Shown here piece after piece: positions 11,386 to 46,222 of a DNA stretch of 56,474 bases. Origin of the DNA: a virus. Taxonomy: Duplodnaviria; Heunggongvirae; Uroviricota; Caudoviricetes. The first letter of the stretch is position 1, and the number at the start of each line of letters is the position of its first letter. The notes under the pieces are model-generated. The model worked only from the letters and a program-made list of their open reading frames with translations. It searched no databases and was not told where the DNA came from. A program made the position numbers and the translations under genes. The DNA lies in the IMG/VR virus record IMGVR_UViG_2880372215_000005. One strand, 5' to 3'.

Positions 11386-12026
11386 TTTTCGGAATACCTC
11401 TCCCGTTTACTCAGTTGTTCAGGCAGATGGTGAAGCAGCTCACCGTTGCCGCAGTAAATGGCGGCATGGTTCGGTACCGAAGCACCAAAGCAGCACAGCA
11501 GAATATCGCCAGGCTGTGCGGAAGGCAGGGAAATCCTGTAAAAACCAGTCGCCTCCATATTGTCCAGGTACAGGTTCTGACCGTTGCGCCACCAGTCATC
11601 CTCACGCTCAAAATCCGGCATATCAATTCCCGCCAGATGGTAGGCATCCCGGAACAGCGTGTAACAGTCCGTCACCCCGTGCTCAAAGCGCCGTCCTGTC
11701 AGATGTGGCACACAGCGGAATTTATGAATTTCCCCCCGGCAGACCAGCCACCAGGACAGTGCACTTTTTATCTGCAGCCGCCGGTCGGCCTCGCTCAGCC
11801 AGGGCAGACCACCGGGATGACTGTGGACCAGTGCCACAATCTCCCCCTGCATCTCTGCCCGCAGCCAGTCTTCCGGTGCAATACGAAAATACGCCTCCGG
11901 CTCTGCAGAGATATTCACACAAGGGATATACCGCTCCCCCTCCGGCGTTCTCACCACGAAGCCGCACGACTCCGCTGGCGCACACCGCCGGGCATGCGCC
12001 AGAATCGCTGATTCAGTCTGTGTCAT
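11283..12026 (-). CDS. K: tail assembly protein K (MPN/JAB + NlpC/P60 domains)
   Basis: MTQTESAILAHARRCAPAESCGFVV... with HSHP motif; start chosen at internal ATG 12026 (in frame with ORF 11283..12287); overlaps I as in lambda. Confidence 0.85.
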   Translation of the reverse strand: MTQTESAILAHARRCAPAESCGFVVRTPEGERYIPCVNISAEPEAYFRIAPEDWLRAEMQGEIVALVHSHPGGLPWLSEADRRLQIKSALSWWLVCRGEIHKFRCVPHLTGRRFEHGVTDCYTLFRDAYHLAGIDMPDFEREDDWWRNGQNLYLDNMEATGFYRISLPSAQPGDILLCCFGASVPNHAAIYCGNGELLHHLPEQLSKRERYSEKWQRRTHSAWRHRHWHASAFTGIYNDLAAASACM

Positions 12027-40121: not shown

Positions 40122-41180
40122 TCATCCGTTACGAATGATTAAATCCTGTACTTCCCGCACCGTCTGCTCAAAACGTTCAGTCTCCAGTTCAACGCCAGTT
40201 GCACGACGTCCCAGCGCCATCGCTGCTTTCACTGTCGACCCCGACCCCATGAAGAAATCTGCAACCAGGTCTCCCGGACGACTGCTTGCGCTGATTATCT
40301 GCTGCAACATTTCTGCCGGTTTTTCGCACGGATGTTTCCCTGGATAGTACTGCACCGGTTTATACGTCCACACATCGGTGTACGGCACCTGCACCGTCAC
40401 ACCGAAATACCGCCGCAGATGCTTATATTCACTCTGCAGCTCCGCATACTGTCGGTTCAGAGAGGCATACGTATCCACCAGCTGGTGGTGGGGCTTTTCC
40501 AGTTCACCCCGCTGATGCTTCTCTTCTGCCACCCGGGCAAACAGTGCCTGTAATTTCAGATAATCGCTTTCGTTCGGCAGCTGCCACTGACCGGCACTGA
40601 ACCAGTGCGACACCATGTTTTTCTTTCCTGTGGCATCTGCAATCTGTTTTGCCGTTATCCCCAGGACAGCGCGCGCATCACGAAAGTAAGCAATCAGCGG
40701 GGCCATCACATGCTGTTTCAGTGTCCTACCCTTCGCCTCATACCCGGCATCTTTCGGACGATACGGCCCCTGATAATGCTCTGCGAACAGAATGCGCTCT
40801 GTGGCGGGGAAATACGCCCGCAGGCTTTCCTTGTTGCACCCGTTCCAGCGTCCGGACGGCTTTGCCCAGATGATATGGTTCAGCACGTTAAACCGCTCAC
40901 GCATCATGATTTCGGTGTCAGATGCCAGACGATGGCCACAGAACAGGTAAAGACTTCCGGCAGGTTTCAGCACCCGCCAGAACTGCGCAAGACACTGGTC
41001 CAGCCACTTCAGGTAATCTTCATCACCCGCCCACTGGTTATCCCAGCCCTCGGGTTTCACTTTGAAGTACGGCGGGTCCGTGACTATCAGGTCAACAGAA
41101 TTTTCGGGTAACGACCGCATAAATTCCAGGCAGTCGGCGTTGATTAACTCACAACTGGATATTTTTACAGTATTAAGCAT
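40122..41180 (-). CDS. DNA amino-methyltransferase (N6-adenine or N4-cytosine), orphan
   Basis: 352 aa with DPPY motif near the N-terminus (VTDPPYF) and AdoMet-binding FxGxG near the C-terminus (DFFMGSGST); no adjacent restriction endonuclease. Confidence 0.8.
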   Translation of the reverse strand: MLNTVKISSCELINADCLEFMRSLPENSVDLIVTDPPYFKVKPEGWDNQWAGDEDYLKWLDQCLAQFWRVLKPAGSLYLFCGHRLASDTEIMMRERFNVLNHIIWAKPSGRWNGCNKESLRAYFPATERILFAEHYQGPYRPKDAGYEAKGRTLKQHVMAPLIAYFRDARAVLGITAKQIADATGKKNMVSHWFSAGQWQLPNESDYLKLQALFARVAEEKHQRGELEKPHHQLVDTYASLNRQYAELQSEYKHLRRYFGVTVQVPYTDVWTYKPVQYYPGKHPCEKPAEMLQQIISASSRPGDLVADFFMGSGSTVKAAMALGRRATGVELETERFEQTVREVQDLIIRNG

Positions 41181-41330
41181 GGATCATTAAGCCTGTCTCT
41201 GATAGGCTCATTCTGCTTTTGCGCAAAGCAGTGGGCCTGAGGTTTGCTTGTGAACCCAACGCATGAGCAGATGGCTGGTGGGTGCCCCTTACACCCACCA
41301 GCCGCCCATTTACCACAAATAAAAAAGCCT

Positions 41331-41528
41331 TCAGGACTGAAGGCGTCTGTAACAACCAAACTGATAGTCTGCCAGACCCGCCATAACCAGCTGGGTCAGT
41401 ATTAACTGGCAGCGTTCGCGTGAAAGGTAAGTATTCTGCGCAATCTCCCCGACTGTCGCCGGGTCGGTAACGCTTAATTCATTAAACACCACTCTGGCGG
41501 TTTCTGTCATATCCTGCTGTTTCAGCAT
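41331..41528 (-). CDS. hypothetical small protein downstream of Q
   Basis: 65-aa frame MLKQQDMTETARVVFNELSVTDPATVGEIAQNTYLSRERCQLILTQLVMAGL...; ORF extends to 41651. Confidence 0.3.
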   Translation of the reverse strand: MLKQQDMTETARVVFNELSVTDPATVGEIAQNTYLSRERCQLILTQLVMAGLADYQFGCYRRLQS

Positions 41529-41651
41529 GTCTTTTTCCCTTTTCCGGTTAACGTGACACACCAATAACTCTTGTCGAAAAAGCCAGCAACCTGAAAGAAC
41601 GGTATTAATAACCACCAGCGAATTTATTGCGCTGCTGTATATTACGGACAC

Positions 41652-41676
41652 AAAAAAACCACCTTCCGGTGGCTTC
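41652..41676 (-). terminator. rho-independent terminator immediately downstream of the Q-like gene (tR'-like)
   Basis: minus-strand hairpin ggaagccaccggaaggtgg followed by tttttttg. Confidence 0.6.
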
Positions 41677-41769
41677 CTTGTGCGAAAAAACTTGCATTTC
41701 GCCTCGCGATACAGCTTTGCGAAGCTTACAGGAATTCAAGCTGTTTCTGCGTAAAAAAGCAAGCTTTTT

Positions 41770-42312
41770 TTATCGAAATGAATCGTGCATAGGTACATAA
41801 AGCATGTGTTCAGCCACGGCTAACCAACCTGCAATACGTTTCTCACATGTGCTGAAACACCATTCCGGGTGAGTACGATTTAAACATTCTGCCATTTTTC
41901 TCTTACTCATTCCCCGTCCTTCGTACCTTTGCCGGAGAATATTGATTAGCCCGGGATATTCCCCAAGCACCTCACTGATAACGCGATCAATAATCAACGC
42001 CTCTGTGTCTGTACAATGTGACAACCAGCTCTTCTGCTTCCCTCTGGTCATATCCCGAAAAAATGCCTCAAGTTCCGGTTTTTCCAGCCCGGATTTCTTC
42101 ATGCTGCGTAAAACCTCATTAACTGCTGTTTTCGTCAGCTTTTTCGAAACCAGTAACCGGTTAAACATATTTCCGGATTTACCCCCACCGATATACGACC
42201 ACCGCCCCCACATCCGTAATTTCCCCTGGATCCAGACTGCTTCCAGCGTGTTCAGGCGTAAATGTTCGCCGCTTTTGCCTGTAATTTCCGGATATATCAT
42301 ATTTACGCTCAC
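41770..42312 (-). CDS. putative late-gene antiterminator Q-like protein
   Basis: 180-aa ORF directly after rusA and directly before a strong terminator, i.e. the canonical Q position; family assignment not verified. Confidence 0.35.
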   Translation of the reverse strand: MSVNMIYPEITGKSGEHLRLNTLEAVWIQGKLRMWGRWSYIGGGKSGNMFNRLLVSKKLTKTAVNEVLRSMKKSGLEKPELEAFFRDMTRGKQKSWLSHCTDTEALIIDRVISEVLGEYPGLINILRQRYEGRGMSKRKMAECLNRTHPEWCFSTCEKRIAGWLAVAEHMLYVPMHDSFR

Positions 42313-42668
42313 TCACTCTCAATTTTGTAAATCTTCACACCCAGCCGTCCACCAGATACTGGCTGACCACGTACAATATTGATTTCATCAAACTGCTCAT
42401 CGTCCATTAACACTCCCGCATGCGTCAGCGCATCCAGCGGTGCTTTCAGAATATTGTCCAGGTCACGACGACGCTTATCCGGTGGCTCTGCAATAATTTT
42501 TATTGCCAGCCGTCCGGACAGGCTTAATTTCAGTCGCTGCTGGCGAACAATAAGCACCACTGCCCGGCGATAACGCTCCCCGGCTTTTGATACAAAATAT
42601 GTGCTGCCACGGCGTCGCCAGTAAGTGTTCACCGTCGGCGGGTAAGGTAAAACCAAATCTATGAGCAT
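42309..42668 (-). CDS. rusA: Holliday junction resolvase RusA
   Basis: 119 aa with ..PPDKRRRDLDNILKAPLDALTHAGVLMDDEQ.. RusA signature. Confidence 0.85.
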   Translation of the reverse strand: MLIDLVLPYPPTVNTYWRRRGSTYFVSKAGERYRRAVVLIVRQQRLKLSLSGRLAIKIIAEPPDKRRRDLDNILKAPLDALTHAGVLMDDEQFDEINIVRGQPVSGGRLGVKIYKIESE

Positions 42669-44554: not shown

Positions 44555-44710
44555 TTACTCCTCAGGTTCGTAAGCTGTGAAGACAGCGACCTCCGTCTGG
44601 CCGGTTCGGATTCGTACCTCGCAGAGGTCTTTCCTCGTTACCAGTGCCGTCACTATGACGATTAAACAGATGACGATCAGGGCGATTAACATCGCCTTTT
44701 GCTGCTTCAT
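44555..44710 (-). CDS. hok: Hok/Gef-family type I toxin
   Basis: MKQQKAMLIALIVICLIVIVTALVTRKDLCEVRIRTGQTEVAVFTAYEPEE (51 aa) nested in a longer mok-like reading frame 44555..44767. Confidence 0.85.
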   Translation of the reverse strand: MKQQKAMLIALIVICLIVIVTALVTRKDLCEVRIRTGQTEVAVFTAYEPEE

Positions 44711-45045
44711 AGCCTGCTTCTCCTTGACCTTTCGGTCCGTAAGAGGCAATCTATATGTGACGAGCATATAGGGGCCTCACTTCGATTTATAGTCGGGTGG
44801 GGCTTTTATCTATCTGCCGTTGGTGTTCATGCCCGAGGCAGATAGCCTCAAGCACCCGCAGCAATCCTACTTAACTCTGCCGTTACAGCAAACCGTTTTC
44901 GCCCGATATGGGAATTCCCATATCGGAATGAATTCAGTTCACCTGGCGAGGCTTAGCGTACAATTTTTTCCGTTTTGTGAGCTGCCCCTACATGCCGCTG
45001 GCGCGGCATCCGGAAAAAGAATCCACGTCCTGAAGGACGAGGATG

Positions 45046-45804
45046 TCAAGTGCCTTTCCTGGTCCAGCCATATTTTTTGAATGCAGGCGCCGCTTCATCG
45101 GTTTGTAGCCATTCTGCAAATCGACGGGTTTCATCATTTGCATCCTGACGTACTGTAATGTTCATATCACGCCATATCACGTAGTCTGGCGCTATTTCCA
45201 CGACATCACCAATTTCTGGATTACTGGCTGCCCAGTCAGCCCAGGTTATCCAGACATCTGCTCCAGGCTGATTCTCAAGAGCCTTACGTGCAGTTCCGCT
45301 ATTGGGCGCATATAAAATAATATTTTTTCGGATTGCGGCGACAGTTTCTATATTCCCTTTACGTCCGGCAATATCTTCCCAGACGCCAGTGCCTGATGTA
45401 TTACTGGTACCACCACCATCATTAACAATTACGCCAATCCCAGGTCTGGTCAGGTCGTCAATACTCCGGATATTTTTAGGATTACCTTTCTTTACCAGTA
45501 AAATACTTTTTCGCAGATAAAGAGGCTGAATATCTTTTTCACTGAAGCTGTCTTTATGGTCCCGAATGATAGCCAGAGCAGATTGTTCTGATGCGCCAAA
45601 CAAGATATCTGCATTTTTTTTGGCATCTTCATTCCATTTGTTCTGTGGGCCGTAATGAACGTTCACTATAATACCTGTTTTTTCGGCATAAAGTTTGGCT
45701 GCATCAAGCAAGGCTGTATGCGGGCCACCAGGACCATACAGATTGATATCAGCATAAGCAGCAGAAGACAGGAATATTAAAAAACCTGCCATTATGTTCC
45801 TCAT
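45046..45804 (-). CDS. secreted periplasmic solute-binding-protein-like protein (ModA/PBP2-like fold suspected), orphan moron
   Basis: 252 aa with signal peptide (MRNIMAGFLIFLSSAAYA); no adjacent permease or ATPase genes. Confidence 0.45.
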   Translation of the reverse strand: MRNIMAGFLIFLSSAAYADINLYGPGGPHTALLDAAKLYAEKTGIIVNVHYGPQNKWNEDAKKNADILFGASEQSALAIIRDHKDSFSEKDIQPLYLRKSILLVKKGNPKNIRSIDDLTRPGIGVIVNDGGGTSNTSGTGVWEDIAGRKGNIETVAAIRKNIILYAPNSGTARKALENQPGADVWITWADWAASNPEIGDVVEIAPDYVIWRDMNITVRQDANDETRRFAEWLQTDEAAPAFKKYGWTRKGT

Positions 45805-46222
45805 AAAAAACTCCTTTTATTGGTTATCATGAAATAAAGTTATAAACACTACAAATAATATATATTACATCCAGATAAACTTATCCGACTTTACCTCGTG
45901 CATAGCTTGTTATTTAAAGTCAACAAAATAAGGAAAATTATACGCATATTGAAGAGTATAAACCTTACATGTTGATTACATTTTTGTAATCAACATCCTG
46001 TTTGGAATAGCCAGCCTTTAATGGATAACTATTTCTGACAATGCAATGAGTATAATCAAGTCCATCTTCCACTGAGAATTAGAGGCGGCATGCTTTTTCC
46101 GGCTCTTGCCGGATATCCGTAATTGTCCATAATCTGCAGATTTATACCTTCTGCATGACCTGTCAGCGAAAATTTGTCCGGTGTTTCTACGGGAATGACA
46201 TCAAAAGTTACACGCACTCGCG

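Follow-up and report, generated by a model that had tools for sequence, protein, structure and literature searches.

The DNA analysed here, referred to as the window, is a stretch of 56,474 nucleotides (nt) from a virus of the Caudoviricetes (IMG/VR record IMGVR_UViG_2880372215_000005). Its positions 38660-42660 are prophage Sp9 of Escherichia coli O157:H7 Sakai, with 0 mismatches over 4001 bases. On the minus strand at 40122..41180 lies an intact open reading frame (ORF) of 352 codons, running from ATG to TGA, which corresponds to ECs_1780 (annotated 'DNA methylase'; WP_000935548.1) and encodes a beta-class N6-adenine methyltransferase of the M.EcoGII family. Abutting its start codon is a conserved, structured element of 140 nt (41178..41317, in methylase-sense, minus-strand coordinates), preceded in turn by a small gene, ECs_1779, for a winged-helix protein and by a gene for a Q-like late antiterminator. 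Taken together these features probably describe a sequence-non-specific methylase in a Q-dependent late operon of the lambdoid prophage Sp9, locked in the lysogen and protecting packaged phage DNA after induction. We hold this reading as a whole with good confidence, the nature of the lock being a considerably more tentative matter.

The methylase has a single Pfam match, PF01555 (N6_N4_Mtase), which covers residues 29-340 and scores 149.1 bits where the cut-off is 26.7 (E 2.4e-43). The catalytic motif IV, DPPY, occupies residues 35-38 (codons at 41067..41078, minus strand) and is invariant in 15 family members; the S-adenosylmethionine-binding motif I, F-M-G-S-G, lies at residues 310-314 (40239..40253, minus strand), with F310, G312 and G314 also invariant in 15 members. 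Motif IV is N-terminal to motif I with the recognition domain between them, the order that defines the beta class. The limits of this central domain for target recognition (from about residue 160 to 237, 40470..40703, minus strand) are those of the helix-turn-helix four-helix bundle in the published M.EcoGII model (PMC11551740), transferred by homology through the end-to-end M.EcoGII alignment. An earlier, sequence-only reading of the locus had described an amino-methyltransferase of 352 residues with DPPY before FxGxG, which the ORF translation and the PF01555 match bear out; the strand, unstated there, is minus. Purifying selection on the family is evident from identities of 0.82 at codon positions 1 and 2 and 0.46 at position 3 (44 members), and the DNA of the ORF is 100% conserved in at least 345 complete genomes, O157:H7 genomes among them. 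The best relatives in the Protein Data Bank (PDB) align just to the two conserved ends of the protein and are uninformative on specificity, and a PDB search found no solved structure of M.EcoGII. The MT-A70 rRNA/DNA methyltransferase of Shiga toxin (Stx) phages was considered and rejected as an identity for this protein, which has DPPY rather than DPPW and matches PF01555 only. The Stx-phage 'rRNA methyltransferase' of Gong et al. was likewise ruled out, being an MT-A70/DPPW protein encoded elsewhere in the prophage.

Enzymes of the M.EcoGII type are already marketed as chromatin-footprinting reagents. ECs_1780 and M.EcoGII align end to end with 325/350 residues identical (93%), the only internal gaps being two reading errors in the published table. 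The comparison sequence, taken from the PDF of Supplementary Table S1 in PMC11551740, was machine-read, and three or more evident misreadings in it make the figure of 93% approximate and slightly too low. The two proteins share the order of DPPY and FxGxG, the central domain and linker, and the status of prophage-borne orphans, features also common to M.EcoGI; they differ by ~25 substitutions and by a C-terminus that is 3 residues longer in ECs_1780. M.EcoGII methylates adenine in any context, accepting duplex DNA, single-stranded DNA and RNA as substrates, and its expression slows growth and is reported to be toxic (PMC5778455). In its native lysogen, E. coli O104:H4 C227-11, the enzyme is unexpressed, and the role proposed for it is to guard the phage DNA against restriction once the prophage is induced (Murray et al., 2018; PMC5778455). 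The same authors named phage 1720a-02 as carrier of a very similar enzyme (PMC5778455), and that phage is 93.6% identical at the DNA level. From its sequence, ECs_1780 very probably belongs with the M.EcoGII-type sequence-non-specific N6-adenine methyltransferases; the enzyme is in this sense already known, as one more allele of that family. Its presumed non-specificity, toxicity and silence in the lysogen are carried over by analogy from these close homologues.

The family is widespread. Related DNA occurs in 1989 of 5426 complete E. coli genomes (about a third), in as many as seven places per genome. Homologues at 63-85% identity are found across the Enterobacterales, and others at ~50-60% in N15, phiKO2, PY54, and Vibrio and Aeromonas phages. 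Members in temperate phages, with 50-86% identity to ECs_1780, include SfV orf48, N15 gp52, phiKO2 gp52, PY54 gp60, VHML ORF17, and those of phiP27, cdtI and mEp460. In the late operons of these phages the methylase gene occupies the same place as ECs_1780, past the late terminator and ahead of the lysis genes.

Nowhere in the neighbourhood is conservation higher than in the spacer that separates ECs_1779 from the methylase gene. Nucleotide identity of the element is 0.79-0.81, as compared with 0.44-0.46 at methylase third positions, and the mean pairwise value for the last 137 nt before the start codon (0.81) matches that of methylase codon positions 1 and 2. A covariance model, R1, was built from 31 enterobacterial sequences. 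With cmsearch it recovers the element in 50/52 assessable genome loci outside Xenorhabdus and Photorhabdus, including loci that lack the small ORF, and in 71/100 more distant loci. Phages and genera with the element include SfV, Morganella, Serratia, PY54, phiKO2, N15 and the Vibrio phage VHML, in the phages again upstream of the methylase. The matches always end at the downstream start codon, the element is single-copy in the window, and in N15 and phiKO2 it begins directly after the annotated late terminator.

In the modelled structure a short G+C-rich helix, P1, closes a three-way junction whose other arms are the hairpins P2 (12 bp) and P3, with the hairpin P4 following. A fifth helix beside the start codon, P5, is poorly supported, being paired in 64% of diverse sequences. 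Among 53 distinct diverse sequences both sides have changed in 31/34 modelled pairs, with 354 compensatory cells observed against 116 +/- 9 after shuffling, a covariation score of 0.46, where shuffles reach 0.135 and slid partners no more than 0.06, and 85% of cells paired against 28-37% for slid partners, all of these figures being inflated by the fitting of the diverse alignment to the model structure. An unfitted enterobacterial alignment points weakly in the same direction, its sequences hardly varying. No curated Rfam family matches the element at either gathering or E-value thresholds. A match to the Rfam family P26 was sub-threshold in the window (24 bits, plus strand) and did not recur in twelve other element-bearing loci, and a potential leader peptide with tandem Trp codons (MGGWWV) overlapping P2 was discarded, its reading frame being lost in relatives.

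Several observations bear on which strand carries the structured RNA. When folded, the antisense strand (41214-41312, plus strand) adopts exactly the covariation structure, at -48.9 kcal/mol with a z-score of -4.9 and a 29% share of the ensemble. P3 is missing from the fold of the sense strand, for which the z-score is -3.5 and the share 6%. Counted over helices 1-4 of the diverse set, the methylase-sense strand has 100 A.C cells and 26 G.U cells. In most enterobacterial sequences the extension of P3 places a tandem C.A/A.C mismatch on the sense strand and a tandem U.G/G.U on the antisense strand, which forms an 11-bp P3 helix. The predicted product is a cis-antisense small RNA of ~97 nt (41215..41311, plus strand) comprising a 5' hairpin P4', the three-way junction P1'/P3'/P2' and a terminal UUU, as drawn from the fold and from the transcript EcOnc49 described below, with its 3' end inferred. 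These observations tend to favour the antisense strand.

A putative promoter for such an RNA is present at 41200..41208 on the plus strand, where the extended -10-like motif TGATAGGCT conforms to the conserved pattern TGnTAnnnT. The invariant letters of TAnnnT (hexamer positions 1, 2 and 6) are the key positions of the sigma-70 -10 element. TAnnnT ends 4-7 nt before P4' in 53/53 distinct diverse sequences (against 14.4 on average and at most 23 in shuffles), and TGn precedes it in 33/53. The consensus promoter scan of the window did not report the TGnTAnnnT motif. From TGATAGGCT an antisense start near 41215 is predicted, the upstream zone of the promoter lying over the methylase start codon. 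An experimental trace of such a transcript comes from Hfq crosslinking and analysis of cDNA (CRAC), in which EcOnc49 was recorded as an orphan peak in Sp9 at 1772764-1772808, minus strand, and flagged for a nearby Rho-independent terminator (Tree et al., 2014, Table S2; PMC4104026). The older coordinates were calibrated on EcOnc03, whose published sequence lies at window 39476-39526 (offset 134-137). So converted, the EcOnc49 peak falls on the plus strand at 41215-41259, that is, in the 5' half of the predicted antisense RNA, starting at the predicted +1. We infer that the 140-nt element encodes a cis-antisense RNA corresponding to EcOnc49. That this RNA acts as a lock on the methylase is a tentative proposal, which we rate slightly short of an even chance.

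The main competing explanation is that the element acts on the sense strand as a cis-acting 5'-untranslated region (a translational operator, protein-binding leader or riboswitch), the opposite-strand motif being coincidental. Such a leader would account for the constant end of the element at the downstream start codon and for the lack of a visible Shine-Dalgarno sequence, the 3' helix P5 covering the place where one would be expected. It would also fit the G.U pairs conserved on the sense strand in helices 2 and 5 (26 and 32 cells in the enterobacterial set) and a sense-strand fold that is better than shuffles (z-scores of -3.5 to -4.2). Yet P5 is poorly kept in diverse sequences, P3 on the sense strand has to accommodate the tandem C.A/A.C mismatch that becomes part of an 11-bp helix on the antisense strand, the fixed distance of TAnnnT holds in every sequence of the diverse set, and an antisense transcript bound by Hfq begins where predicted. 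A cofactor-sensing riboswitch, as one form of this explanation, is made unlikely by the variety of downstream enzymes, which use different cofactors (S-adenosylmethionine-dependent methylases, Mom and a glycosyltransferase). An exclusively sense-strand role is on this evidence unlikely. The two roles could be compatible, by analogy with cis-antisense systems in which target and regulator form mirror-image stem-loops.

Genes downstream of the element were surveyed by scanning viral contigs for exact matches to the pattern of the P1 motifs, which yielded 80 loci, 46 of them confirmed by the covariance model; retrieval in this way required an intact P1 and so biased the sample towards intact elements. 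An M.EcoGII-type methylase follows at 34/46 loci, a C5-cytosine methylase (PF00145, E 1.5e-41) at 3/46, and a Mom-family protein (PF25680, E 7e-71) at 2/46. At 1/46 a ParB_N protein and then a TET-associated glycosyltransferase (PF20691) follow, at another 1/46 a LydA-type holin directly follows an intact element scoring 58 bits, and at 5/46 the contig ends or the gene is truncated. A DNA-modification gene is accordingly found behind 40/41 confirmed elements with readable downstream sequence, and the element is kept from Vibrio to Escherichia phages before at least four unrelated enzyme types. It could act as a sequence signature by which phage genomes are searched for DNA-modification genes.

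The holin locus raises the possibility that the element is a generic leader of late operons and that modification genes merely land in an insertion slot behind it, an arrangement consistent also with its start immediately past the annotated late terminator in N15 and phiKO2. Weak, degenerate, full-length matches stand upstream of the holin in lambda (NC_001416, 45017-45129, 19.2 bits) and in HK97 (36085-36194, 17.6 bits). These relatives retain a GGCAGGAGGT...ACCTCCTGCC hairpin followed by GTTTTG but are without P1, P4 and TAnnnT, as if selection had been relaxed in phages with no modification gene, and 933W, which has tRNAs and stx in the slot, shows no R1 match. The near-constant presence of a DNA-modification gene behind the element also speaks against a generic leader, subject to the retrieval bias towards intact P1. 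We consider a generic leader improbable, somewhat more so than a purely sense-strand one. The simplest reading, given the biased sample, suggests that the element stays intact where a DNA-modification gene follows and decays elsewhere.

The gene order is that of a lambdoid late region. The Q-like antiterminator gene, ECs_1778 (DUF1133 and Phage_antitermQ), is at 41770..42312 on the minus strand (annotated as 41770..42300). About 100 nt past it a terminator-like hairpin, CCACCGGAAGGTGG with T7 (41652..41672, minus strand), is a candidate for tR'; the scan tool listed this hairpin for the plus strand only, and the minus-strand T-run was read from the sequence by eye. The terminator scan gave a second intrinsic-terminator-like hairpin, GCCTTCAGTCCTGAAGGC with T6 (41318..41344, minus strand), which overlaps the stop codon of the small ORF and is maintained by compensatory changes in relatives. 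Comparable orders are annotated in SfV (Q, terminator, orf47, the methylase gene orf48, terminator, holin) and in N15 and phiKO2 (late promoter, terminator, methylase, terminator, holin). The annotation of the N15 gene 52 methylase appears to be ~78 codons short, homology and the upstream element placing its start at N15 locus 2501 rather than 2735. The expression on induction that the sequence-only reading had proposed is plausible from gene order, with Q-dependence a matter of inference. The protection of progeny DNA that it suggested coincides with the proposal made for the 93%-identical M.EcoGII (PMC5778455), and its epigenetic alternative is unsupported. Two features that it passed over, the small upstream gene and the conserved antisense element, probably control expression of the methylase. 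Late expression combined with an anti-restriction role is, in our judgement, likely.

The small gene ECs_1779 (phrog_331; 41331..41528, minus strand) encodes 65 residues from a conserved start, MLKQQDMT, and ends ~150 nt ahead of the methylase start codon; a 106-residue version of the ORF was ruled out, only the 65-residue form being conserved. NCBI names the product a 'TrmB family transcriptional regulator'. Its AlphaFold2 model (predicted local distance difference test score, pLDDT, 89.7) is a winged helix with the order H-H-H-strand-strand, and Foldseek finds a resemblance to IclR/MarR DNA-binding domains, with E-values all above 0.001. Homologues are present in 75/76 close viral loci with enough upstream sequence and in 57/78 diverse genome loci, across which identity drops to 38% for the small protein and to 63% for the methylase. 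An ORF of this type was found in 57 phage records, and in every record listed in both searches the methylase starts ~150-200 nt later. The Q allele and the downstream genes vary around the pair, which recurs in the majority of Enterobacterales phages and prophages that have an M.EcoGII-type methylase. An obligatory role for ECs_1779 was ruled out by its absence from 21/78 assessable genome loci and from N15, phiKO2, PY54 and VHML, in most of which the element is kept. It may serve, where present, as an accessory that lifts the lock at a late stage of infection.

A mechanism that would join these features can be outlined. In the lysogen, leak from the late promoter would be halted by the two terminator-like hairpins between the Q-like gene and the methylase. 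Residual leak would be countered by the antisense promoter and RNA, through polymerase collision, through pairing with the leader followed by cleavage, or through both, the RNA being complementary to the methylase leader and its promoter overlapping the methylase translation start. Silencing in the lysogen would matter because the enzyme family is toxic. Upon induction, Q-modified RNA polymerase would read through the terminators and override the antisense control. ECs_1779, made from the same late transcript, may in addition shut the antisense promoter, a suggestion drawn from the position of the P4 palindrome at its +1. The methylase would then act indiscriminately on adenines throughout the replicating phage DNA, and the packaged DNA would resist adenine-sensitive restriction systems of the next host. 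Repression by the antisense RNA and any contribution of ECs_1779 are putative. More broadly, the element may represent an uncharacterised family of cis-antisense small RNAs, with EcOnc49 as its sole experimental trace, that serves as a portable safety lock for toxic DNA-modification genes, a generalisation that we advance tentatively as a possibility falling a little below even. With an element at hand and a matching public Hfq-bound transcript, the question of silencing in the lysogen becomes testable in a standard E. coli system. O157:H7 strains carry as many as seven methylase copies in different prophages, some of them defective, and, speculatively, an induced copy could modify the DNA of a co-induced Stx phage in trans and widen its host range.

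A number of findings pull the other way. In the interval from the Q-like gene to the methylase, no sigma-70 late promoter emerged from the consensus scan, so that Q-dependence of methylase expression is drawn from gene order. In the enterobacterial set the balance of cells on the sense strand is reversed, with G.U at 31 and A.C at 19, and the U-run after P1' is just 3 nt long in the window. EcOnc49 itself was recovered in 3/5 replicates, without northern confirmation (PMC4104026). Several of the ~25 positions at which ECs_1780 differs from M.EcoGII fall in the central domain. The prophage part of NZ_CP012802.1, which is 100% identical to window 30000-54000 (24 kb) and adjoins ompW, carries the portal gene, the tail-tip gene J and the minor tail gene L as pseudogenes with frameshifted or partial annotations (locus 9320-11894, 1-2288 and 2551-2913). 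Sp9 is therefore probably unable to form particles alone, and protection of its 'own progeny' may be moot if the prophage is defective.

Layered control of the kind proposed has a precedent in the com-mom operon of phage Mu, where a toxic late DNA-modification gene is silenced at several levels and is accompanied by a small upstream ORF and a structured leader at the start codon. The Mu Com protein, which has a zinc finger, activates translation by binding to the sense mRNA. To our knowledge, Mu mom is the only case in which the silencing of a lethal phage DNA-modifying enzyme in lysogens has been worked out in detail. Sp9 would share the logic of layered control, and a Mom-family gene of other phages carries the same upstream element; the small protein of Sp9 is by contrast a winged helix and often absent, and the evidence in Sp9 points to an antisense RNA. 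Cis-antisense control of harmful genes is itself familiar from hok/sok, from sar-ant of P22, and from antisense RNAs found in the restriction-modification systems EcoRI and Eco29kI. As in systems of the hok/sok type, the Sp9 locus would have a small structured RNA, a constitutive-looking promoter opposite the leader, and mirror-image stem-loops. It departs from them in that the predicted RNA stops short of the start codon, which is covered instead by the putative promoter, and in that the element is common to unrelated downstream genes; repression in Sp9 is, moreover, a prediction. N15, phiKO2, PY54 and VHML also differ from Sp9, no ECs_1779 homologue having been detected in them. The MT-A70 enzyme M.EcoPA8orf6770P of an Stx phage methylates 16S rRNA with a winged-helix partner, PNB-2 (PMC10810198). 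It resembles ECs_1780 in being an O157:H7 prophage methyltransferase with a small winged-helix gene upstream, but has an MT-A70/DPPW fold, a location in another part of the prophage, and a different substrate. The papers on M.EcoGII mention neither the upstream winged-helix gene nor the antisense element (PMC5778455; PMC11551740), and a literature search returned nothing relevant on EcOnc49 or on antisense control of phage orphan methylases. The conserved element and its partner gene seem to be undescribed in the literature searched.

ECs_1780 could alternatively be a site-specific orphan adenine methyltransferase with a motif of its own, serving epigenetic regulation or a narrow form of anti-restriction. 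Many family members are labelled 'site-specific DNA-methyltransferase' by NCBI, and M.PflMI, a member of a related clade, is described as site-specific (PMC11551740); the residue differences from M.EcoGII noted above could be read in the same way. The labels are, however, generic automatic names, and ECs_1780 has diverged from M.EcoGII to an extent similar to that seen when M.EcoGI is compared with M.EcoGII, these two differing at 16/349 positions (PMC5778455). O111 Stx-producing E. coli have homologues of M.EcoGI and M.EcoGII (92-93% amino-acid similarity) that are catalogued as 'nonspecific' and leave lysogen methylomes without a signal. A charged interdomain linker, tied to non-specific binding by the SUPREM authors, is retained in ECs_1780, the M.EcoGII alignment being gap-free over residues 140-260, and even for reconstructed ancestors of much greater divergence the description remains non-site-specific (PMC11551740). 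A site-specific enzyme is on these grounds very unlikely. The recognition motif and epigenetic action entertained in the sequence-only reading find no support in a family in which M.EcoGII is context-free and lysogen methylomes carry no detectable trace of M.EcoGI, M.EcoGII or their 92-93% homologues. Motif calling would be uninformative for ECs_1780 because M.EcoGII methylates any adenine and the family is silent in lysogens. The lack of an attributable motif, offered there as a refutation, would for the same reasons refute nothing, a blank being expected from a comparison of lysogen and cured strain. It follows that motif-calling pipelines would never assign ECs_1780 a motif and that lysogen methylomes would appear blank despite an intact gene.

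That the methylase is an inert relic of a decaying prophage, without present function, is scarcely credible, since the frameshifted portal and tail genes of Sp9-type prophages identical to the window and the silence of the enzyme family in lysogens are set against an intact ORF fully conserved in hundreds of complete genomes, strong purifying selection at codon positions 1 and 2, catalytic motifs that are all intact, and an upstream control element that is conserved as well.

The methylase is flanked by the 65-residue winged-helix protein, the Q-like protein, a RusA resolvase, a DUF968/HNH protein of the nin region, and transfer RNA (tRNA) genes. Two tRNA genes follow it on the minus strand, one with the anticodon CAT at 40006..40081 (Met according to ARAGORN, tRNA-Ile ileZ3 in RefSeq) and tRNA-Arg (tct), argO3, at 39849..39925 (ARAGORN and RefSeq). 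In the former the CAT anticodon presumably carries a lysidine modification, like that of the ileZ tRNAs encoded by Stx phages. The position between the Q-like gene and the tRNAs, and the orphan status of the methylase, both stated in the earlier reading, agree with the ORF, profile and tRNA calls and with the flanking genes. No restriction-endonuclease partner was found among the flanking ORFs, PADLOC matched the methylase to methyltransferase models only and gave zero matches and no defence system for three tested neighbours, and no restriction-modification nuclease is annotated in the examined prophage part of NZ_CP012802.1. Membership in a Type II restriction-modification system was considered and set aside, no cognate endonuclease being adjacent.

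Downstream of the tRNAs lies a convergent pair of small RNAs. The anti-small RNA EcOnc03 at 39476-39526 (plus strand) matches its published sequence exactly and scores 56.6 bits against Rfam AgvB, and a small RNA of the STnc100 family is found at 39531-39739 (minus strand; Rfam 175 bits). This convergent arrangement is the one described by Tree et al. for the 'moron' insertion slot downstream of the late promoter PR' (PMC4104026). Beyond it, at 37472-39382 on the minus strand, a 636-residue sialate O-acetylesterase-like protein of the SASA family (DUF1737, SASA, DUF6645) is encoded in the place of nanS-p of Stx phages, with no stx genes between the tRNAs and this gene. In the nin region are the type I toxin gene hokD (NZ_CP012802.1 locus 27457-27612, ~window 44556-44711) and the virulence gene paa, encoding an AcfC-family adhesin (locus 27948-28706, ~window 45047-45805).

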